Of a stretch of DNA of 44,534 bases, positions 30 to 34,056 are shown one piece after another. The notes under the pieces were generated by a model, which ran no database searches, was not told the DNA's origin, and worked only from the letters and a program-made list of their open reading frames with translations. The DNA lies in the sequence record OZ035807.1. One strand, written 5' to 3'. Every line of letters starts with the position of its first letter. Position 1 is the first letter of the stretch. Source of the DNA: Vectrevirus LI10P3. The position numbers and the translations under genes were made by a program.

Positions 30-329
30 GTGAGCGTACACAATAAACATGCAGCTACAGAGGATGAGGTTGGCATTCTGCATGGTGCTATTACCAAAAT
101 CTTCAATAAGAAAGCACAGGCAATACTGGACACTATAGAAGAAGACCCTGATGCAGCATTACATTTAGTGTCTGGTAAGGATATTGGTGCGATGTGTAAG
201 TGGGTTCTTGATAACGGCATTACCGCCACACCTGCTGCACAGCAGGAAGAGTCCAAGTTATCTAAGCGCCTCAAGGCTATCCGAGAGGCATCCAGTGGCA
301 AGATTATTCAGTTTACAAAAGAGGAGTGA
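30..329 (+). CDS. putative terminase small subunit (T7 gp18 position)
   Basis: 99-aa ORF with GTG start and AGGAGAG RBS about 6 nt upstream; lies immediately upstream of the HNH and large terminase genes. Call is by synteny only, no motif recognised. Confidence 0.45.
   Translation: MSVHNKHAATEDEVGILHGAITKIFNKKAQAILDTIEEDPDAALHLVSGKDIGAMCKWVLDNGITATPAAQQEESKLSKRLKAIREASSGKIIQFTKEE
122..144 (+). promoter_or_regulatory. phage RNAP promoter-like sequence inside small terminase gene
   Basis: ACTGGACACTATAGAAGAAG matches the core of the repeated promoter consensus; upstream ATTTAC part is not conserved (GCAATA). Confidence 0.35.
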
Positions 330-330
330 T

Positions 331-774
331 ATGCATAGATGGTGTGAATCTCAAGGTTATACCATCTTACCTTCTGGTGTCATCCTTTCAAAGGGTGGCA
401 CCCCTCTCAAACCATTCAAGGCGGGTAGGGGTTATTTAGCAGTTAAAATTAAAAATAAAGAAGGTAAATGGCGTAATGTCTATGTTCATCAATTAGTGGC
501 TTATAAGTATTTACCTAAAACTAATAATGAAGTAAACCACAAAGACGGCGATAAGCACAACAATGATGTTAGCAACTTGGAGTGGGTAACAAGAAGCGAG
601 AATAACTATTTAAAATGCAATGGAAATGATAGGAGTGCCTTAAATAGCTATTTAGCAAGATTAAAAGATTGCTTCTTGCAAGGTAAGGGTGTAGCAGAAA
701 CCGCTAGACTTACTGGTAAAAGTGAACCAAGAGTTTCTTCTCTCTTTAAGGAGTGGCGAAATGGCAAAGGCTAG
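331..774 (+). CDS. HNH homing endonuclease
   Basis: ATG at 331 with GAGGAG RBS 4 nt upstream; motif NHKDGDKHNNDVSNLEWVTRSENN is a typical HNH signature; sits between small and large terminase genes and overlaps both. Confidence 0.7.
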   Translation: MHRWCESQGYTILPSGVILSKGGTPLKPFKAGRGYLAVKIKNKEGKWRNVYVHQLVAYKYLPKTNNEVNHKDGDKHNNDVSNLEWVTRSENNYLKCNGNDRSALNSYLARLKDCFLQGKGVAETARLTGKSEPRVSSLFKEWRNGKG

Positions 775-23258: not shown

Positions 23259-23636
23259 ATGTTCAAGATTGAAACTATCGTAAACCGTGTTGTTAAAGGT
23301 GCTGCTCTGGTATCCGTTGAGTCTTTCATTATCGTCGATGAAGCTGATCAACTGGTAGCTGGTACTAAGGCTTATGATACTCGTGAAGAAGCTCAGGCTA
23401 AGATTGACAGCATGGGTAACTTCGCTGCGGGTCTGGAGTTCGCTCGTGCTTGCTTCCCTGAGCAGGCTGACAAAGCTCAGATTGGTAAGGCTAATATCGT
23501 AGCTGAATATCTGGATTGGATTGCTGCCGGTAAGCCGGTGAAAGAAGTTAAGTCTGCTGAAGAAGCTGAAGCTCAGGCAGTAGAAGAAGTAGCTGCACCG
23601 GTAGGTGCTCCGGTAAGCGAAGAAGAAGAGTTTTAA
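23259..23636 (+). CDS. highly acidic hypothetical protein (abundantly expressed)
   Basis: 125 aa, about 24 acidic vs 12 basic residues, C-terminus SEEEEF; strong RBS AAAGGAG; codon usage strongly biased to cgt/ctg/ggt/gct; own promoter and terminator. Confidence 0.7.
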   Translation: MFKIETIVNRVVKGAALVSVESFIIVDEADQLVAGTKAYDTREEAQAKIDSMGNFAAGLEFARACFPEQADKAQIGKANIVAEYLDWIAAGKPVKEVKSAEEAEAQAVEEVAAPVGAPVSEEEEF

Positions 23637-23641
23637 TTGAT

Positions 23642-23676
23642 GCCCTGTCTGCCTTAGTGTAGGCAGGGTCTTTTGC
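23642..23676 (+). terminator. terminator hairpin after acidic protein gene
   Basis: GCCCTGTCTGCC...TAGGCAGGG stem followed by TCTTTTG; near-identical in sequence to the hairpin after the capsid gene. Confidence 0.5.
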
Positions 23677-23700
23677 GTAATAGTTATTGGAGAATGAATT

Positions 23701-24006
23701 ATGCCGACTATTAAATCTCGTTTAGTAGCAGACTATGTGTATGGTCGTGACTTAAAGTTAATGCAAGATTACTTTAAAGTAATCATCCTGCTGGATGGAG
23801 AAGTGTTTCACACTAAAACATTCACCCTTCCTGAATTGTTTGATTTAGGTTATTGGGGTTATACATATCAGGCCATAGCAGACAAGGTGCTACTCAGTGT
23901 ATTAGAGGAGTGGCCTACATGCGACCAAACTTCGACTTCGGAGCTACAGTATCGGAAGACAATAACCTGTTGCTGTGGCCAACTGAAGGTAATAGAATCG
24001 CTTTAA
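23701..24006 (+). CDS. hypothetical protein
   Basis: 101 aa; 3' end overlaps the exonuclease gene by about 88 nt in another frame. Confidence 0.45.
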   Translation: MPTIKSRLVADYVYGRDLKLMQDYFKVIILLDGEVFHTKTFTLPELFDLGYWGYTYQAIADKVLLSVLEEWPTCDQTSTSELQYRKTITCCCGQLKVIESL

Positions 24007-24947
24007 TAGATGCTGACATGTTACCCTACATCGTAGGTTATACAATCAGTGACATGACTTATGTACGAGCCACAACTCGTGTTAAGTCAGGACAAGTCCC
24101 ATCAATCAAAGATACACCTGAGTGTAAGCAAGCGTGTGACCGTGTGAACTCCTTGCTCAACTCTTGGGTGTATGCAGCAGAGTGTGATGCAGCTAAGTTA
24201 TTCATGACGAAATCAGAAGCTAACTTCCGTGTTCGCCTAGCCTTCACCAAGCCTTATAAGGGTCAACGTAAGACCGAGAAGCCTCCGTTCTTCTATGAAT
24301 TGCGAGAGCATCTCTTAGAGGTTCATGGTGCAATCTTGGCAGATGGAGAAGAGGCTGATGACCTCATGAGCATTGCACAATGGGACAGCCACCGCCGCTT
24401 CCAGCAAGATACAGGTAACGAGTTCCCTATCGGTAGTCCAGAGCATAAAGCATTCTCTGATACTTGCATCGTTTCCTTAGATAAGGATTTGATGATTGTT
24501 CCCGGTTGGCATCTTCAGCCGGGTCAAGAGAAGAAATGGGTAGAGCCTATGGGTTGGCTTGAGCTACGCCGTAAGGCTAATGGTCAGGTTAAAGACCTTA
24601 AAGGTGCTGGCCTCATGTTTCATTATGCACAGATGATTATCGGTGATGATATTGATAACTATGCTGGCATACCTGGACGTGGTGCTAAATACGCCTATGA
24701 TCTTCTCAAAGATTGTAAGACAGAGAAAGAGTTGTACATGGCAGTGCTTGGTGCTTACAAGGCTAAGTTCGGACATGGACAAGTTAAGATTAAGAATTAC
24801 CGAGGTGGTTATCGTATCGGCAAGGCTTTTGACCTGATGCTCGAATGTGGTCGCCTAGCCCACATGGCAAGATTCAAAGGTGATATATGGCGAGCCGATA
24901 AGAACCCAATCTTGTGGGGAGATGATGCGAAATGGTTAGCAAATTAA
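23919..24947 (+). CDS. 5'-3' exonuclease (T7 gp6-like, FEN/PIN fold)
   Basis: ATG 23919 with GAGGAG RBS; acidic clusters LIDADMLPY, DGEEADDLM, VSLDKDLM typical of FEN-type nucleases; position after DNA polymerase. Confidence 0.75.
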   Translation: MRPNFDFGATVSEDNNLLLWPTEGNRIALIDADMLPYIVGYTISDMTYVRATTRVKSGQVPSIKDTPECKQACDRVNSLLNSWVYAAECDAAKLFMTKSEANFRVRLAFTKPYKGQRKTEKPPFFYELREHLLEVHGAILADGEEADDLMSIAQWDSHRRFQQDTGNEFPIGSPEHKAFSDTCIVSLDKDLMIVPGWHLQPGQEKKWVEPMGWLELRRKANGQVKDLKGAGLMFHYAQMIIGDDIDNYAGIPGRGAKYAYDLLKDCKTEKELYMAVLGAYKAKFGHGQVKIKNYRGGYRIGKAFDLMLECGRLAHMARFKGDIWRADKNPILWGDDAKWLAN

Positions 24948-25342
24948 AATCATCGGAGGTAGCAGCTTATAAGAGGGAATTGCTAGAGAAGCAAGGGTGG
25001 AAGTGCCCACTATGTGGCGGCAGTCTCAAGGCTGTTACTCCTATAAACCGTGTACTTGACCATGACCATGAGACAGGATTCTGCCGTGCTGTTGTATGCC
25101 GAGGCTGCAATGGTGCAGAAGGAAAGATTAAGGGTGTTATCTCTGGTTACGGTAAGGCTGGTAACAACCGTTACTTCCAGCTTCAATGGTTAGAGCGACT
25201 ATATGAATACTGGAAGTTACATAGTACGCCTCAGACAGATAAGTTATATCACAAACATCAAACGGAGGCAGAGAAGCGCGAGGCTAAGAACCGTAAGGCA
25301 CGCCTTGCTTATGCAAGAAAGAAGGAGGTTAAAGTTGGGTAA
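24932..25342 (+). CDS. endonuclease VII-type Holliday junction resolvase
   Basis: 136 aa; CPLCGG ... DHDHETGFCRAVVCRGCNGAEGK zinc/His-Me finger signature of T4 endo VII family. Confidence 0.75.
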   Translation: MVSKLKSSEVAAYKRELLEKQGWKCPLCGGSLKAVTPINRVLDHDHETGFCRAVVCRGCNGAEGKIKGVISGYGKAGNNRYFQLQWLERLYEYWKLHSTPQTDKLYHKHQTEAEKREAKNRKARLAYARKKEVKVG

Positions 25343-26442: not shown

Positions 26443-26946
26443 ATGTCACACTATGAATGTAAGAAGTGTCATAAGCGTTATGATTACTGTACTTGTGGTC
26501 AAGAGAAAACATCTTTTAAAGTTGGAGACAAGGTATTTCGTAATGAAAAAGATTCGATTCCTTGGAATCAATACTGCAAAGAAGCTGGTATTGACCCTGA
26601 TAGCCCTGTAACCATAGATGATATTGATGGCATTAACTTGTGCTTTCGTGAGGTGAGAGGTACAGGTTGGGATTCCAAAAAATTCAAACTTGCATCTGAT
26701 AAGTTAGACAACAATATGGTAACTCAGCCTAAGCACTACGAGTTCTTTGATGGTGTAGAGGCAATCACTATCATTGCCCGCAGTATGACTGAAAAGCAAT
26801 TCGCTGGGTACTGCATGGGTAATGCCCTTAAGTATCGCCTGCGTGCAGGTAAGAAGTTCAATACTGAAGAAGACTTGAAGAAGGCAGACTATTATAAAGA
26901 GTTATTCCAGAAGCATCGTCACGAATGTATTGATGAGGATATTTAA
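26443..26946 (+). CDS. hypothetical protein, DUF3310-like
   Basis: 167 aa from ATG 26443 (GGAGGA RBS); N-terminal Cys-rich CKKCHKRYDYCTCG; KHYEFFDGVEAITII...GNALKYRLRAGKK resembles the phage DUF3310 family as I recall it. Confidence 0.5.
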   Translation: MSHYECKKCHKRYDYCTCGQEKTSFKVGDKVFRNEKDSIPWNQYCKEAGIDPDSPVTIDDIDGINLCFREVRGTGWDSKKFKLASDKLDNNMVTQPKHYEFFDGVEAITIIARSMTEKQFAGYCMGNALKYRLRAGKKFNTEEDLKKADYYKELFQKHRHECIDEDI

Positions 26947-26947
26947 T

Positions 26948-27121
26948 ATGGAAGGTAAACTGTATAGAGGGTACTTCGGTAACTTATATAAAGTAAGCTC
27001 TCGCGGTTTTGTATTGACCTCTGATGATGAAGGTGCAATGTGGCACCTAAGTGCACATGGTTCTAACTTAGCATACTTTAAAGAGGCAATAGTCAAAGGT
27101 GTGATGAAGGAGGTGAAATGA
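26948..27121 (+). CDS. hypothetical small protein
   Basis: 57 aa, stop overlaps ligase start. Confidence 0.35.
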   Translation: MEGKLYRGYFGNLYKVSSRGFVLTSDDEGAMWHLSAHGSNLAYFKEAIVKGVMKEVK

Positions 27122-28065
27122 ACATCTTCCAATTCCTAGGTCTTCCAGAAGACCACCGCAATCATCCATTCATGCTGGTGAAGCATCGCGGTGAAGTTCC
27201 TGAGAAGAAACTTACTTTTCCATGTTATGCACAGGTGAAACGAGATGGAATATTCAGTGCTGTTGTGGTGCGTAATGATGGTGCTGTTGCCATCTTTGGT
27301 CGTACTGGTAAGAAGCTCGCAAATGTTGAATCCTTGGAAAAGACGTTTAGTGTATTTCCTGTCGGGTTGTATCTTGGTGAGTTGCAATCTATGGCTGTTG
27401 ATGTTTATCTTGAAGCTCTGTCAGGAGTGGTAAACCCTAATCGTACCGAGCCACTTGATTTCATAGGCCAGCAGATTAAAGACAACCTGTATATCGACTT
27501 CTTCGATATGTTAACCATTAAGGCATTCCATGATGGATTCACTGATGTTTCTTATCTCAAACGTTACGATGCTTTACATCGCCGCATCGGCGCTCATCTT
27601 AGCGGGTACAACGCTATCCTTCCTATTACTCCTTGCCATAATGAGCGAGAAGTTGAAGCGTTTGCGCAAGAGCAAATAGATGCAGGCCGAGAGGGTGCTG
27701 TGTTTAAACTTGACGTGGAGTATGAAAGTGGGCACAAGGGCTATCGTCAAACGAAGATCGTTCGTATGGTATCTTACGACCTCACCTGTATTGGGTGGGA
27801 GGAAGGAAAAGGTAAGTATAAAGGTAAAGTAGCTAATTTAATCTTTAAATGGAAAGGTGGTAAGTCCGTTAAGGCTATGCTGGGGCGTGGCTGGTCACAT
27901 GAGGATGCAGCACAGATGTATCACGATATTAAACACGGTGGCGAACTAAACGTCATTGGGAAAATCTTCGCTGTTAAGGCGTTACAGGAATCTAGTAAGG
28001 GAGTCCTGAGACTTCCCAAGGTTTCTGAACTTAGGTTTGATAAGGAAGTCCCTGATGTCTTCTAA
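27118..28065 (+). CDS. ATP-dependent DNA ligase
   Basis: 315 aa; adenylation motif KRDG (AQVKRDGIFSAVV); RBS GGAGGTG. Confidence 0.75.
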   Translation: MNIFQFLGLPEDHRNHPFMLVKHRGEVPEKKLTFPCYAQVKRDGIFSAVVVRNDGAVAIFGRTGKKLANVESLEKTFSVFPVGLYLGELQSMAVDVYLEALSGVVNPNRTEPLDFIGQQIKDNLYIDFFDMLTIKAFHDGFTDVSYLKRYDALHRRIGAHLSGYNAILPITPCHNEREVEAFAQEQIDAGREGAVFKLDVEYESGHKGYRQTKIVRMVSYDLTCIGWEEGKGKYKGKVANLIFKWKGGKSVKAMLGRGWSHEDAAQMYHDIKHGGELNVIGKIFAVKALQESSKGVLRLPKVSELRFDKEVPDVF

Positions 28066-28540
28066 TCCAAATTACCGAAAACCACCTCGTACACCGCCAA
28101 GACCACTTGCCTACTGTCCTTTTACTGGAAAGCTTTTCCGTAAGTTCAAAGATGGCTGGAGAGAAACAGGACTTAGCAGAAAGAGTGATGGATATTTACA
28201 GTGTAAAGTCGATGGTAAGACTGTAAGTGTTCATGTTTTAGCAATGAATATGATGGGTTATGACACTACCGGCTTTACAGTAGATCACATAAATCATATA
28301 CGCTGGGATAATAGGTTTATTAATCTACGTCTATTATCTCATAAAGATAATTGTTTAAATAGAGAGGCGATACATATAAGTAAGCTGCCGAGTGGTAACT
28401 ACAGAGCGCGATGTGGAAATGTTCATCTTGGCGTATTTGAGGATAAGTTACTTGCTCGTGGTGCTATCCTATGGTATCGCCATAGGAGATTTAATAATGT
28501 TAAATTCAATGAAGGCAACGCGTGCCGTAGAAGTAGCTGA
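28055..28540 (+). CDS. HNH homing endonuclease
   Basis: 161 aa from ATG 28055; motif VDHINHIRWDNRFINLRLLSHKDNCLN; overlaps ligase 3' end. Confidence 0.65.
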   Translation: MSSNPNYRKPPRTPPRPLAYCPFTGKLFRKFKDGWRETGLSRKSDGYLQCKVDGKTVSVHVLAMNMMGYDTTGFTVDHINHIRWDNRFINLRLLSHKDNCLNREAIHISKLPSGNYRARCGNVHLGVFEDKLLARGAILWYRHRRFNNVKFNEGNACRRSS

Positions 28541-28691
28541 AGCTATATTTGAAACTTTATCCTGTGGCATGGAAGTGCCATATACTTTACTTGCTGATGC
28601 AGAAGAACTTGGTCTTTCTGTAGAAGCTATCCAAGAGAAGGTTGACGAATTATATGGTACAGACGAAGAAGAAACCGACGATTTCATTTGA
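28497..28691 (+). CDS. hypothetical small acidic protein
   Basis: 64 aa from ATG 28497 with AGGAGA RBS; C-terminus TDEEETDDFI. Confidence 0.45.
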   Translation: MLNSMKATRAVEVAEAIFETLSCGMEVPYTLLADAEELGLSVEAIQEKVDELYGTDEEETDDFI

Positions 28692-28695
28692 AGGA

Positions 28696-28824
28696 ATGGA
28701 GATGCTTGAGATGATTCTCAAGCCTTCTTCTCCGAAGGTGACTAAGACTCATGAAGAGTTAATCGTTGATGAAGTGAAGCGTTACATCATGGATTGTGTC
28801 AGAGCACAACTGGTGGTCCAATGA
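28696..28824 (+). CDS. hypothetical small protein
   Basis: 42 aa; stop overlaps GNAT start (ATGA). Confidence 0.3.
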   Translation: MEMLEMILKPSSPKVTKTHEELIVDEVKRYIMDCVRAQLVVQ

Positions 28825-29282
28825 TACGTCCAGCTTCCTTCCTAGATATTCCTGAGATTATAAACCTTGGGAATAAATATGTGGAAGAGGAAGTCAAGGT
28901 AGTGGCCCATCACTCAGCATCATGGAATGCAGAACAAAGCGCACATAACCTTTGCGCATCTCTTAGTAGAGAAGATTTATTCCTATGGGTTGCTGTAGAT
29001 GAAGGGCGGATTGTAGGGTTCCTGTGGGCTGGCTATCACGAGTTGGCCCCTTGGACACCTGTAAGGGTTGCCTCTGACATTCTCTTTTATATTATACCAG
29101 AGAAGCGAGGAACCCTACTTGGTATGCGTCTCATCAAAGCCCTAAAGCAATGGGCTAGTGATAATGAATGCTCTGAGGTTCGCCTGTCTATCGCCTCTGG
29201 TATCAATGAAGAACGTGTCGGACGTATGTATAAGCGACTTGGCTTTGAACCGTTTGGCACTGTGTATAACCTGAAGTTCTAA
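28821..29282 (+). CDS. GNAT-family N-acetyltransferase
   Basis: 153 aa; RIVGFLWAGY and EKRGTLLGMRLIKALKQWA resemble GNAT acetyl-CoA-binding motifs; ends ...YKRLGFEPFG. Confidence 0.6.
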   Translation: MIRPASFLDIPEIINLGNKYVEEEVKVVAHHSASWNAEQSAHNLCASLSREDLFLWVAVDEGRIVGFLWAGYHELAPWTPVRVASDILFYIIPEKRGTLLGMRLIKALKQWASDNECSEVRLSIASGINEERVGRMYKRLGFEPFGTVYNLKF

Positions 29283-29291
29283 GGAGATAAC

Positions 29292-29501
29292 ATGGGTGTT
29301 GTAAAGAAAGCATTTAAGGCTATCGGTCTTGCTCAAGATGCACCACGTATTGAAGCGAAAGTGCCAGCACAGCAGCTTGAGCGTAAGCCAGAGACTGAAG
29401 CTGAAGATATTCAGATTGGTGCAGGAGATGATGATGCTACTGCATCTGCAAAAGGCAAGCGTGGCCTTGTCCGTCCGGTAGCTTCTAGCTTGAAGGTGTA
29501 A
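29292..29501 (+). CDS. hypothetical small protein upstream of portal
   Basis: 69 aa, RBS AAGGAGA. Confidence 0.5.
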   Translation: MGVVKKAFKAIGLAQDAPRIEAKVPAQQLERKPETEAEDIQIGAGDDDATASAKGKRGLVRPVASSLKV

Positions 29502-29502
29502 T

Positions 29503-31053
29503 ATGAAACAGAGCACAGATTTGGAGTATGGAGGTAAGCGGTCTAAGATACCTAAGCTATGGGAGAAATTCTCCACTAAACGTAGCTCTTTCCTTGATAG
29601 GGCGAAGCATTACTCCAAATTAACCTTGCCCTATCTGATGAATGACAAAGGTGATAACGAGACTTCGCAGAATGGATGGCAAGGTGTAGGTGCTCAGGCA
29701 ACCAACCATCTAGCCAACAAGCTAGCGCAAGTACTATTCCCTGCACAGCGTTCCTTCTTCCGTGTAGACTTAACTGCACAAGGTGAGAAGGTTCTTAATC
29801 AGCGTGGCCTGAAGAAGACAGAGCTAGCTACCATCTTTGCTCAAGTGGAAACACGGGCAATGAAAGAGTTAGAGCAACGTCAATTCCGGCCTGCTGTAGT
29901 AGAAGCATTTAAGCATCTTATTGTTGCTGGCAGCTGTATGCTATACAAGCCGAGCAAAGGTGCAATCAGTGCTATCCCAATGCATCACTACGTAGTTAAC
30001 CGTGATACCAATGGCGACCTGTTAGACATTATCTTGCTACAAGAGAAAGCCTTACGTACCTTTGACCCAGCTACACGTGCTGTAGTAGAGGTTGGCCTGA
30101 AAGGTAAGAAGTGCAAAGAAGATGACAGCGTTAAGCTGTACACACATGCTAAGTATCTTGGTGATGGATTTTGGGAACTCAAGCAATCTGCTGATGATAT
30201 CCCTGTGGGTAAGGTGAGTAAAATCAAATCAGAAAAGCTACCTTTCATCCCATTAACTTGGAAGCGAAGCTATGGTGAGGATTGGGGTCGCCCTCTTGCA
30301 GAGGATTACTCCGGTGATTTATTCGTTATCCAATTCTTATCTGAAGCGGTTGCCCGTGGTGCTGCGCTGATGGCAGATATCAAGTACCTGATTCGTCCGG
30401 GTGCTCAAACTGATGTTGACCACTTTGTTAACTCTGGCACTGGTGAGGTTATCACTGGTGTAGAAGAAGACATCCATATTGTACAGCTAGGTAAGTATGC
30501 AGACCTCACACCTATTAGCGCGGTTCTAGAGGTATACACTCGCCGTATCGGTGTTGTCTTCATGATGGAGACAATGACACGCCGTGACGCCGAACGTGTT
30601 ACTGCTGTAGAAATCCAGCGAGATGCGTTAGAGATTGAGCAGAACATGGGTGGTGTATACTCCCTCTTTGCTACCACTATGCAATCGCCAGTAGCGATGT
30701 GGGGTCTGCTGGAGGCGGGGGAGTCCTTCACTAGTGACCTAGTGGATCCTGTGATTATCACAGGTATTGAAGCTTTAGGACGCATGGCTGAGTTGGATAA
30801 ACTGGCTAACTTTGCTCAGTATATGTCACTGCCATTACAATGGCCTGAGCCTGTCCTAGCTGCTGTGAAATGGCCTGACTATATGGATTGGGTGCGTGGT
30901 CAAATCTCTGCTGAACTGCCGTTCCTTAAATCGGCTGAAGAGATAGCACAAGAACAGGAAGCACAGATGCAAGCACAGCAAGCACAGATGCTTGAAGAAG
31001 GTGTGGCTAAGGCCGTGCCGGGTGTAATTCAACAAGAACTTAAGGAGGCGTAA
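29503..31053 (+). CDS. portal / head-tail connector protein (T7 gp8-like)
   Basis: 516 aa directly upstream of scaffold and capsid; size and synteny. Confidence 0.8.
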   Translation: MKQSTDLEYGGKRSKIPKLWEKFSTKRSSFLDRAKHYSKLTLPYLMNDKGDNETSQNGWQGVGAQATNHLANKLAQVLFPAQRSFFRVDLTAQGEKVLNQRGLKKTELATIFAQVETRAMKELEQRQFRPAVVEAFKHLIVAGSCMLYKPSKGAISAIPMHHYVVNRDTNGDLLDIILLQEKALRTFDPATRAVVEVGLKGKKCKEDDSVKLYTHAKYLGDGFWELKQSADDIPVGKVSKIKSEKLPFIPLTWKRSYGEDWGRPLAEDYSGDLFVIQFLSEAVARGAALMADIKYLIRPGAQTDVDHFVNSGTGEVITGVEEDIHIVQLGKYADLTPISAVLEVYTRRIGVVFMMETMTRRDAERVTAVEIQRDALEIEQNMGGVYSLFATTMQSPVAMWGLLEAGESFTSDLVDPVIITGIEALGRMAELDKLANFAQYMSLPLQWPEPVLAAVKWPDYMDWVRGQISAELPFLKSAEEIAQEQEAQMQAQQAQMLEEGVAKAVPGVIQQELKEA

Positions 31054-31973
31054 TGTCTTTCTCATTTACTGAACCGTCAACCACTCACCCTACTGCTGAA
31101 GAGGGTCCGGTAGAAACCAAGGAGGTAACAACTGATGCTGCTACTACTGATGCTACTGCTGACGCTGGCACTGCTGTACAAGATGACAATGCTGGTGCAC
31201 AACCTACTGAAGACACCGGAGGAGAGGCTTCTGGACAGCCTTCAGAAAAAGGAGACAATGGCGGAGAGAATGGTGAATCTAAGCCAGATGATACCGCGAC
31301 CGACACTGAGGAAGTGCAATACTTCTTCGGAGAACATGAAGTAACAATAGACATCCCACAGGATGTAACTGACAGCCTTAAAGAGAAAGGCATTGATGCC
31401 AAGCAGGTTGCCAAGGAACTCTATTCCAAAGGTGGCAAGTTTGAACTGTCAGATGCAACCAAGCAGAAATTGTATGATGCTTTTGGCAAGTTTGCGGTAG
31501 ATGCTTACCTGTCAGGTCTTAAGGCTCAAAATGAAGCCTTCTTCCTGAAAGAAGCCAACGCAGCTAAAGAGTTGGAAGCAGCTAACACCCAACGCTTCTC
31601 TGATGTTTCTAAGGAAATTGGTGGCGAAGAAGGTTGGTCCCGTCTTGAGGAGTGGGCGCTTGAAACGCTATCCGATGACGAACTCACGGCATTCAATGCT
31701 GTGATGGAGTCTGGCAACCAGTACCTCCAGCAGTACGCTGTGCGTGAACTGGAGAGCCGCCGTAAGACTGCACAGGGTGATGATAGGCCATCCCTGATTG
31801 AGCCATCAGCACCTGCTAAGGCTAATGAAGAGAATGGCCCACTGACGCGAGATCAGTACGTTCAAGCAATCGCAACTCTTAGCCAGAAGTACGGCAATGA
31901 CCGTAAAGCTATGGCAGAAGCTCAGGCTAAACTGGACGCCCGTCGCCGTGCTGGCATGGCTCGCGGTATCTAA
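31053..31973 (+). CDS. scaffolding protein (T7 gp9-like)
   Basis: 306 aa, acidic low-complexity N-terminus; between portal and capsid. Confidence 0.7.
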   Translation: MSFSFTEPSTTHPTAEEGPVETKEVTTDAATTDATADAGTAVQDDNAGAQPTEDTGGEASGQPSEKGDNGGENGESKPDDTATDTEEVQYFFGEHEVTIDIPQDVTDSLKEKGIDAKQVAKELYSKGGKFELSDATKQKLYDAFGKFAVDAYLSGLKAQNEAFFLKEANAAKELEAANTQRFSDVSKEIGGEEGWSRLEEWALETLSDDELTAFNAVMESGNQYLQQYAVRELESRRKTAQGDDRPSLIEPSAPAKANEENGPLTRDQYVQAIATLSQKYGNDRKAMAEAQAKLDARRRAGMARGI

Positions 31974-31977
31974 TTCA

Positions 31978-32004
31978 GTATTTACTGGACACTATAGAAG
32001 GGAG
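31978..32004 (+). promoter_or_regulatory. phage RNAP promoter upstream of capsid gene
   Basis: GTATTTACTGGACACTATAGAAGGGAG. Confidence 0.75.
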
Positions 32005-32052
32005 AAAAGTTCTCCCTAGTTATCAATTTGATTTATAAGGAGATTATAATAC

Positions 32053-33264
32053 ATGTCTACACCGAATACTCTGACTAACGTTGCTGTATCTGCATCCGGT
32101 GAGGTTGACAGCCTTCTCATTGAGAAGTTTAATGGTAAGGTCAATGAGCAGTACCTGAAAGGTGAGAACATTCTGTCCTACTTTGATGTACAAACTGTTA
32201 CTGGCACTAACACAGTGAGCAACAAATATTTGGGCGAAACTGAGTTGCAGGTGCTAGCACCGGGTCAGTCTCCTAATGCCACCCCTACTCAGGCGGATAA
32301 AAACCAGTTGGTAATTGATACCACTGTCATTGCTCGTAACACTGTGGCTCACATCCACGATGTACAAGGTGACATCGATAGCCTGAAACCAAAATTGGCT
32401 ATGAACCAAGCCAAGCAACTGAAACGTCTGGAAGACCAGATGGCAATTCAGCAGATGCTGTTAGGCGGTATTGCTAACACCAAGGCCAAACGTAACAAGC
32501 CGCGTGTTAAAGGGCATGGCTTCTCTATCAACGTTAACGTAACTGAGAGTGAAGCACTGGCTAACCCTCAGTATGTTATGGCTGCGGTAGAGTATGCTCT
32601 GGAGCAACAGCTTGAGCAGGAAGTGGACATCTCTGATGTAGCTATCATGATGCCGTGGAAGTTCTTCAATGCTCTGCGTGATGCAGACCGAATTGTAGAT
32701 AAGACTTACACTATCAGCCAGTCTGGTGCAACCGTTAATGGCTTCGTTCTCTCTTCTTATAACTGCCCTGTGATTCCGTCTAACCGATTCCCTACCTTCG
32801 CTCAGAATCAGGCTCACCACCTGTTGTCTAATGAAGATAATGGCTATCGTTATGACCCTATCGCAGAGATGAATGGTGCAGTTGCTGTTCTGTTCACTGC
32901 CGACGCACTGCTGGTGGGTCGTACCATTGAAGTGACTGGTGACATCTTCTATGAGAAGAAAGAGAAGACTTATTACATTGACACCTTCATGGCTGAGGGT
33001 GCAATCCCTGACCGTTGGGAAGCAGTGTCTGTAGTTACCACTAAACGTAATGCAACTACTGGTGCTGCTGAAGGTTCTGGTGGTGATGATCACGCAACCG
33101 TACTGGCTCGTGCACAGCGTAAGGCTGTATATGTCAAAACCGAAGGTGCTGCGGCTGCATTCTCTTCTACCCCAGCAGGTATCCAAGCGGAAGACCTTGT
33201 AGCGGCGGTACGTGCTGTAATGGCAAATGACATCAAGCCGACTGCAATGAAACCTGCTGAGTAA
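32053..33264 (+). CDS. major capsid protein
   Basis: 403 aa; highly biased codon usage; strong promoter upstream and terminator downstream, as for T7 gene 10. Confidence 0.85.
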   Translation: MSTPNTLTNVAVSASGEVDSLLIEKFNGKVNEQYLKGENILSYFDVQTVTGTNTVSNKYLGETELQVLAPGQSPNATPTQADKNQLVIDTTVIARNTVAHIHDVQGDIDSLKPKLAMNQAKQLKRLEDQMAIQQMLLGGIANTKAKRNKPRVKGHGFSINVNVTESEALANPQYVMAAVEYALEQQLEQEVDISDVAIMMPWKFFNALRDADRIVDKTYTISQSGATVNGFVLSSYNCPVIPSNRFPTFAQNQAHHLLSNEDNGYRYDPIAEMNGAVAVLFTADALLVGRTIEVTGDIFYEKKEKTYYIDTFMAEGAIPDRWEAVSVVTTKRNATTGAAEGSGGDDHATVLARAQRKAVYVKTEGAAAAFSSTPAGIQAEDLVAAVRAVMANDIKPTAMKPAE

Positions 33265-33271
33265 TACCTAT

Positions 33272-33306
33272 GCCCTATCTACCTTGCGTAGGTAGGGTTC
33301 TTTTTG
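33272..33306 (+). terminator. late terminator hairpin after capsid gene
   Basis: GCCCTATCTACC-TTGCG-TAGGTAGGG stem-loop followed by TTCTTTTTGTT. Confidence 0.6.
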
Positions 33307-33318
33307 TTAGGAGGATTC

Positions 33319-34056
33319 ATGCCTGTTATTAAACAACAAAGTTACACTGGCTATACTGTCTCAGATGTAGCCTTTCAAGTGATTGATAGTAAGCTGGAGG
33401 CTGTTAACCTTTGTATGCGAGCCATTGGTCGTGAGGGTGTGGATTCTCTCGACTCAGGCGACCTTGATGCTGAAGATGCTAGCAAAATGATTGATATCGT
33501 CTCCCAACGTTTCCAATACAACAAAGGCGGTGGCTGGTGGTTCAATCGTGAACCTAACTGGCAGCTTGCACCAGACACGAACGGTGAGATTAACTTGCCT
33601 AATAACTGCCTAGCTGTATTGCAGTGCTACGCATTGGGTGAGAAGAAAGTGCCTATGACTATGCGTGCAGGTAAGCTCTACTCTACTTGGAGTCACACCT
33701 TTGATATGCGTAAGCATGTTAATGCTAATGGTATGATTCGTCTTACCTTACTCACCTTACTACCCTACGAGCATTTACCTACAAGTGTAATGCAGGCTAT
33801 TGCCTATCAAGCTGCTGTAGAGTTTATTGTGTCTAAGGATGCAGATCAGACTAAGCTAGCCACTGCGCAGCAGATAGCCACTCAGCTTCTTATGGATGTA
33901 CAATCTGAGCAAATGTCACAGAAGCGATTAAACATGCTGGTACATAACCCCACTCAGCGTCAGTTTGGTATCATGGCTGGTGGCTCTCAGAATGTACCTG
34001 CTTACTCTCATTCACCTTATGAGAGTTGGGCGCTCCGTCCGTGGGAGGATCGTTAA
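33319..34056 (+). CDS. tail tubular protein A (T7 gp11-like)
   Basis: 245 aa from ATG 33319 with AGGAGGA RBS; position after capsid. Confidence 0.7.
   Translation: MPVIKQQSYTGYTVSDVAFQVIDSKLEAVNLCMRAIGREGVDSLDSGDLDAEDASKMIDIVSQRFQYNKGGGWWFNREPNWQLAPDTNGEINLPNNCLAVLQCYALGEKKVPMTMRAGKLYSTWSHTFDMRKHVNANGMIRLTLLTLLPYEHLPTSVMQAIAYQAAVEFIVSKDADQTKLATAQQIATQLLMDVQSEQMSQKRLNMLVHNPTQRQFGIMAGGSQNVPAYSHSPYESWALRPWEDR

Follow-up and report, generated by a model that had tools for sequence, protein, structure and literature searches.

A probable free-standing HNH homing endonuclease gene at the ligase/gp25 junction of Vectrevirus LI10P3

The Vectrevirus LI10P3 sequence record OZ035807.1 (44,534 nucleotides, all of which is called the window here) represents a K1E/K1-5-like phage of the SP6 group (Autographiviridae, Molineuxvirinae), and between its DNA ligase gene and its homologue of K1E gp25 lies a gene for a protein with an HNH motif. 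This gene is very likely a free-standing homing endonuclease gene (HEG), whose HNH product belongs to the HNH_3, I-HmuI-like type and has a short putative AP2-like tail, and its target is probably the 3' end of the ligase gene; that its product cleaves DNA and promotes homing is what we infer. It shows the features by which free-standing HEGs are recognized computationally, namely sporadic presence, a shared site for which a precise empty allele exists, polymorphism in the flanking DNA, and no surrounding intron or intein. The gene is real and looks mobile, yet it is an ordinary type of phage passenger.

The HNH gene and its product

The original prediction for this DNA had placed a second HNH endonuclease gene at 28055-28540, starting within the last codons of the ligase gene and followed by overlapping small open reading frames (ORFs), and this arrangement is borne out. 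The HNH and ligase ORFs overlap by 11 nt (the ligase stop codon is the TAA at 28063-28065), and the gp25 homologue starts 44 nt ahead of the HNH stop codon, with its Shine-Dalgarno (SD) sequence AGGAGA (28484-28489) inside the HNH gene. The HNH protein matches Pfam HNH_3 (PF13392; E 7.5e-9, 35.5 bits against a cut-off of 24.8, residues 59-99), PHROG 99 "HNH endonuclease" (E 7.7e-27) and the PADLOC "HEase" model (E 5e-5), and a profile search from its close homologues finds more than 4800 relatives, many of which join HNH_3 with Pfam AP2; the ORF is therefore not a chance one. No match was found in NCBIfam, and a defence or anti-defence function was dropped because PADLOC gave nothing beyond its generic homing-endonuclease model. 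The two parts of the predicted motif, VDHINHIRWDNRF and HKDNCLN, are residues 76-88 and 96-102, respectively. A 60-sequence family alignment shows no variation at D77, H78, N80, N86 and N90 and conservation of at least 90% at N99, and the window protein has all of these residues; by analogy with I-HmuI, D77, H78, N90 and N99 may be assigned the roles of the catalytic set.

The AlphaFold2 model of the protein (mean predicted local distance difference test score, pLDDT, 89) has N-terminal beta strands (residues 18-58), a beta-beta-alpha HNH element (residues 75-103) and a three-stranded sheet plus helix (residues 107-146), and is confident through residue 146, after which the tail (residues 147-161) is of low confidence. 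The beta-beta-alpha fold and an I-HmuI-like N-terminal sheet are both present in the predicted structure. The putative AP2-like domain reaches no Pfam AP2 score and is seen by alignment to AP2-bearing relatives and in the model only. A sequence search of the PDB returned I-HmuI as its sole match, which is not significant (phmmer E 0.79), so the link to I-HmuI rests on the predicted fold.

The position of the HNH stop codon varies. The homologue with 81% identity ends ...RRFNNV; this stop is lost in the window through a TG-to-AA change, which lengthens the protein by 12 residues, and EEc2 also reads through the next stop, giving 165 amino acids. Among the homologues the proportion of non-synonymous differences (pN) is 0.15-0.27 and that of synonymous differences (pS) is saturated at 0.72-0.85, and the ligase shows the same pattern; this saturation barred a ratio of non-synonymous to synonymous rates (dN/dS) for most pairs, so pN and pS are given instead. 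Judged from these sequence comparisons, the HNH gene is under purifying selection. A relic that no longer cuts and awaits deletion would fit the rarity of the gene (three records, see below), the loss of the ancestral stop with its 12-16 extra residues in the window and EEc2, and an SD sequence weaker than that of phages with an empty site. We nevertheless consider such decay improbable, since the catalytic and family-invariant residues are all intact, no copy is frameshifted, the proteins of the four Vectrevirus copies share 98.8-100% identity, pN has stayed far below pS throughout a long divergence, and the structure model is confident through residue 146.

A scan of the window with the SP6 promoter consensus gives 8 matches where 0 are expected, and none of them lies between 26357 and the next one at 31980; sigma-70-like and terminator-like matches do not rise above chance level. 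A promoter belonging to the cassette was ruled out by the lack of an SP6-type promoter in or near it. Having no phage promoter of its own, the HNH gene must be co-transcribed with the nucleotide kinase and ligase genes, and its translation is probably coupled to that of the ligase. An Rfam scan at E values up to 1 found no group I intron or other family, apart from one chance-level miRNA match, and an intron-encoded HEG was ruled out by this result together with the intactness of both flanking ORFs.

The ligase/gp25 junction in related phages

The region 27000-29600 is matched by 85 related phage records at 80-98% identity (these and the following record counts include some GenBank/RefSeq duplicates). 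A tblastn search at 95% identity or more finds the HNH protein encoded in three phage records, EEc2, 6949 and one of two assemblies named LI10P3, and in no others, each time at the same locus; the two LI10P3 records thus differ in the presence of the gene. EEc2 and 6949, which are annotated, label it "hypothetical protein". The original prediction had taken conserved presence across the genus as a sign against a homing endonuclease, and the distribution is the opposite: the gene is found in 3 of about 85 Vectrevirus-like records and in 1 of 21 ZK1-like records, and about 96% of the related genomes do without it. In about 63 records, of the KMB47 type, the ligase gene has a divergent 3' end and adjoins gp25 directly, and in 17, of the VEc3/K1E type, the place of the HNH gene is taken by a 41-codon ORF whose start codon is exactly the ATG at which the HNH gene begins.

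This 41-codon ORF is VEc3 gp30 (1556-1681 of locus L002) and is also found in K1E, EC120, 6948 and the LI10P3 record OZ035735. It has no PHROG match, and it too ends with a regenerated SD sequence and ATG for gp25 (GGAGGTTAATTATG). That it might be a decayed HNH gene was rejected, as its protein and DNA local alignments to four HNH cassettes score like those of shuffled sequences; the likeness is limited to a region of about 14 nt that comprises the SD sequence and ATG.

The structure of the insertion can be seen by comparing Klebsiella phage ZK1, which has the HNH gene, with KPN7, which has an empty site. Their flanks are about 99% identical, and KPN7 lacks exactly 430 bp. In KPN7 the ligase stop codon overlaps the gp25 start (GATGCGTAG); in ZK1 the insert starts right behind this gp25 ATG, which now serves as the HNH start codon, and it ends with ...GGAGAATTAATGA, directly followed by the original ATGCGTAG, so that gp25 regains an SD sequence and an intact start. 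The window has the same architecture (AGGAGATTTAATAATG): its HNH ATG is the start codon of the next gene in phages with an empty site, the SD sequence ahead of it lies inside the ligase D-K-E codons, and the 3' end of the cassette brings a fresh SD sequence and ATG, so that gp25 can still be made. The regenerated ribosome-binding site and ATG have their counterparts in GGAGAATTAATGAATG at the right end of the ZK1 insert and GGAGATTTAATAATG in the contig with the 81% homologue (L017). The cassette has a GC content of 0.37 and its flanks 0.41-0.46, a difference that we judged too small to serve as independent evidence of foreign origin, and composition was set aside.

The flanks themselves carry substitutions that go with the insert. 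ZK1 and KPN7 differ at 29 positions in 3.3 kb. Ten of these lie in the 33 nt of ligase gene that abut the insert, and the 760 nt on the right of the insert are free of them. In the Vectreviruses we called a site diagnostic when its base is common to all four genomes with the HNH gene and absent from five without it; such sites occupy a left and a right flank (Table 1), and those on the left are densest at 28030-28050, the ligase codons for E-L-R-(F/H)-D-K-E-V, which are the same codons that carry the 10 substitutions between ZK1 and KPN7. Outside these two ranges the Vectrevirus genomes form a mosaic that is 98-100% identical. The flank substitutions are consistent with co-conversion, short of proof. 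The SD sequence is among the features that differ. Empty sites mostly read AAGGAGG, which is a stronger SD sequence than the AAGGAAG of the window, and alleles with the HNH gene read AAGGAAG, AAAGAAG, AAAGAGG or AAGACAG; the decamer GATAAGGAGG is found exactly in 5 of the 8 empty-site lineages and in none of the 4 lineages with the HNH gene. The cassette is also more uniform than its surroundings, as genomes that carry it have 1-4 differences per 447-nt cassette versus 2-3% in the flanking kilobases, and its common ancestor should accordingly be more recent than theirs. The patchy presence, single junction, near-isogenic empty site and clustered ligase substitutions that emerge from this comparative genomics uphold the reading of the original prediction, an insertion of a homing endonuclease next to a conserved replication gene.

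In other SP6-like phages all close homologues (58-81% identity) occupy the interval between the ligase gene and the gp25 homologue, immediately behind the former. The one with 81% identity is on a Logan contig, those with 67-69% are in Klebsiella phage ZK1, an IMG/VR contig and another Logan contig, and those with 58% are on two short contigs; relatives at 43-47% identity are found in other genomic contexts. HNH and ligase identities to the window run in parallel (81 and 83%, 69 and 68%, 67 and 68%, 58 and 50%, respectively). Because the divergence of the HNH protein tracks that of the ligase, and because its non-synonymous changes are constrained, the lineage is best seen as an old, functionally constrained resident of this junction and not as a recent import. 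This qualifies the "acquisition" of the original prediction: by these comparisons the lineage is old at this site in SP6-like phages, and a recent arrival from afar is not indicated.

Such long residence might also mean that a former HEG has been domesticated, that is, kept in a vertically inherited position for a benefit to the phage, such as the cutting of competitors in co-infection beyond homing or a role in DNA metabolism beside the ligase, and lost in most lineages. The parallel divergence across four lineages, purifying selection as strong as that on the ligase, and the conserved position and translational coupling would all agree with this. It is nonetheless an improbable explanation, since a gene missing from nearly all related genomes is dispensable, and since horizontal spread, not vertical retention, is what typically leaves a clean empty site with an abutting substitution cluster and, in mosaic backgrounds, a cassette that varies less than its flanks.

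Several observations weigh against a mobile, active HEG. The parallel HNH and ligase identities fit long vertical co-inheritance with frequent loss as well as they fit repeated homing. The difference between cassette and flanks gives Fisher p values of 0.001-0.02 for pairs that include the window, in tests that are non-independent and with p > 0.02 in three of the six pairs. Instead of immunity of the target site, the clustering of substitutions in the flanks could reflect a tract that hitch-hiked from a diverged donor or selection for a weaker SD sequence. Finally, the loss of the stop codon in the window has given the protein a 12-residue tail of low model confidence.

Proposed mechanism and significance

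On the reading of the gene as a free-standing HEG, the enzyme would act in mixed infections by nicking or cutting a genome that lacks the HNH gene, in or near the last 40-115 nt or so of its ligase gene; this location is suggested by the leftward lopsidedness of the substitution tract. A double-strand cut and a strand-specific nick would be equally likely, the latter by analogy with I-HmuI and T4 MobE. Recombinational repair off the genome with the HNH gene would then copy the cassette together with adjoining ligase and gp25 codons, and the co-inherited substitutions might make the resulting allele a poor substrate, might give a potentially toxic nuclease a weaker SD sequence, or both. The affected segment encodes a conserved stretch of the ligase C-terminus, L-R-x-P...R-H-D-K-E, which seems to resemble nucleotidyl-transferase motif VI. 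Conserved catalytic motifs are the kind of target that HEGs favour.

A more far-reaching scenario may be sketched, which we regard as tentative and, taken as a whole, rather doubtful. In it the HEG lineage would have remained faithful to one junction across several SP6-like genera for as long as their ligases have diverged (identity down to 50%); this fidelity would be due to capture of the downstream start codon and SD sequence, both of which are regenerated at the 3' end; the recognition site would be the DNA for the conserved ligase R-H-D-K-E segment that doubles as SD sequence (GATAAGGAGG); and the majority, KMB47-type allele of the ligase 3' end would be cleavage-resistant and descend from a phage that lost the HEG. 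The D-K-D codons of the KMB47-type allele do resemble the alleles of ZK1 and L017, which have the HNH gene. If this speculative scenario were true, pressure from the HEG would diversify the ligase C-terminus in Vectreviruses.

The gene marks a recombination hot spot at the ligase/gp25 junction, where there are at least three alternative alleles, and this helps to explain the mosaicism of the K1-capsule-specific therapeutic phages. Two annotations can be corrected, that of the HNH gene itself ("hypothetical protein") and that of the overlapping gp25 homologue, which is omitted. Since isolates with and without the HNH gene exist that grow on E. coli, and since the predicted target covers only about 40-115 nt, the system is well suited to testing. 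Homing without introns in the T7/SP6 supergroup could be studied with it, and a small site-specific nickase might be obtained from it. The understanding of HEGs is unchanged by these findings and the practical gains are modest; the points of note are the precise way in which the cassette captures a start codon, the long time for which the lineage has kept to a single junction in different genera, and a possible shaping of ligase C-terminal alleles by a HEG.

Neighbouring genes and comparison with known systems

The features of the region are collected in Table 1. The first four codons of the gp25 homologue are, by alignment, supplied by the cassette. This homologue is missing from the annotation of both annotated GenBank records with the HNH gene, 6949 and EEc2, presumably because of its overlap with the HNH 3' end. 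In Era103 it is labelled "DNA endonuclease-like protein"; no Pfam domain was found in the window gp25 protein.

Table 1. Positions of the HNH gene, its flanks and related features in the window
Feature	Position	Strand	Remarks
First HNH gene	184..774	+	Between terminase small- and large-subunit genes; HNH_3, E 4.4e-11; PHROG 59
SP6-type phage promoter	26337..26357	+	Heads the unit with ligase, HNH gene and downstream genes
ATP-dependent DNA ligase (K1E gp24 homologue)	27118..28065	+	315 aa; Pfam DNA_ligase_A_M, DNA_ligase_OB_2; PHROG 114, E 2.6e-70
Left flank linked to HNH gene	27948..28061	+	14 diagnostic sites
SD-like AAGGAAG	28042..28048	+	6 nt 5' of HNH ATG, within ligase D-K-E codons
HNH endonuclease gene (probable HEG)	28055..28540	+	ATG 28055, stop TGA 28538-28540, 161 aa
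Cassette-specific DNA, 447 bp	28062..28508	+	No counterpart in Vectreviruses without the HNH gene (alignment)
HNH_3 catalytic core	28229..28351	+	Residues 59-99; D77, H78, N80, N86, N90, N99
C-terminal AP2-like DNA-binding domain (predicted)	28367..28492	+	Residues ~105-146; ~10 residues shorter than canonical AP2
Regenerated ribosome-binding site (AGGAGA) and ATG for gp25	28484..28499	+	Inside cassette 3' end
K1E gp25 homologue	28497..28691	+	64 aa; phrog_5860, E 3.1e-37
Right flank linked to HNH gene	28520..28550	+	7 diagnostic sites

The first HNH gene of the window is free-standing and overlaps the start of the terminase large-subunit ORF (722-2659). Of 77 related records 17 contain it, with K1-5, LL11 and EEc4 among those that do not, which makes it a second HEG of the sporadic, free-standing kind, at the junction of another essential gene. 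The original prediction had called the two HNH sequences unrelated and independently acquired. Independent acquisition agrees with their independent distribution, as VEc3, KMB47 and EC120 have the first gene and lack the second. Unrelatedness holds at the level of BLASTP, which finds no similarity between the two proteins, and fails at the level of profiles: the catalytic core of the first aligns with the family profile of the second (hhalign probability 80%, E 1.4e-5), and both belong to HNH_3. Both are also sporadic, free-standing and overlap a neighbouring gene, and they differ in PHROG (59 versus 99) and in site.

Further genes of this kind, and other polymorphisms, lie nearby. Klebsiella phage FBKp16 has another HNH gene one gene further on, after gp25 (1436-1864 of locus L022), for which no BLASTP similarity was detected, and the L017 contig has a further HNH_3 gene (1132-1569) between its endonuclease VII and phosphoesterase genes. 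The window gene at 24932-25342 is labelled "HNH endonuclease motif protein (Gp2.8/Gp7.7)" in several GenBank relatives. Its matches are to Pfam Endonuclease_7 and PHROG 423, and every relative inspected has it, which makes it a core gene and not a sporadic HEG. Another small polymorphism of presence and absence concerns a 63-codon ORF (26930-27121) that separates the nucleotide kinase gene from the ligase gene and is missing in EEc2 and 6948, whose matches begin at query position 115. Sharp mosaic blocks are seen at 23555-24054, 27220-27460, 27700-28060 and 31555-33554, in which some relatives fall from 98-100% to about 70-84% identity and others are near-identical; examples are the capsid region (31555-33554) and the 3' half of the ligase gene in KMB47-type phages. 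For each block at least two alleles circulate in the genus. The permutation of the window, whose first letter falls in the late region shortly ahead of the terminase genes, is shared with the unannotated Vectrevirus assemblies OZ035733-OZ035822, which suggests an origin in an assembly set of that kind.

HNH proteins such as HK97 gp74 act with terminase and portal in the packaging of cos-type phages, and the HNH gene of the window lies about 1 kb upstream of the portal gene. A function of this type is very improbable here. Nearly all close relatives lack the gene and yet package their DNA normally, a dispensability that effectively refutes a packaging role; unlike genes of the gp74 type, it is not adjacent to the terminase genes; and its predicted architecture, an I-HmuI-like N-terminal part with an AP2-like tail, is that of a site-specific HEG.

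The structural archetype of the HNH_3 homing endonucleases is I-HmuI of Bacillus phage SPO1 (PDB 1u3e), which on the structure model appears to be the nearest structural relative of the window protein. I-HmuI nicks one strand. Its coding sequence lies within a group I intron of the DNA polymerase gene, and its C-terminus consists of helices and a helix-turn-helix, whereas the window gene is free-standing at the ligase/gp25 junction and the C-terminus of its product is predicted to be a short AP2-like domain. The combination of HNH and AP2 is a recognized HEG architecture beside essential phage genes (Barth et al., PMC10448857), and the window gene shares with these HEGs an N-terminal HNH part, a free-standing state and a position by essential replication or structural genes and, if the predicted AP2-like part is borne out, a C-terminal AP2-type domain. 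It differs from them in that this putative AP2-like part is about 10 residues shorter and below any Pfam AP2 score; and while the IPA-HNH domains of ICP1 are too divergent for Pfam HNH_3, the window protein matches HNH_3 directly. The published description of Vectrevirus mentions homing endonucleases for T4-like phages only (PMC11162368).

The closest functional analogue is the mobE gene of phage T4, a promoterless free-standing HNH HEG whose product acts on phage T2, which lacks the HEG, by nicking the neighbouring nrdB gene strand-specifically (PMC2790892). Like mobE, the window gene is promoterless, transcribed from upstream, placed between two conserved genes and, as its flanking polymorphisms suggest, mobile together with flanking markers. 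The two differ in phage family (T4 being a myovirus), target gene and DNA-binding modules, and the mobility that is deduced from sequence here has been demonstrated experimentally for MobE.

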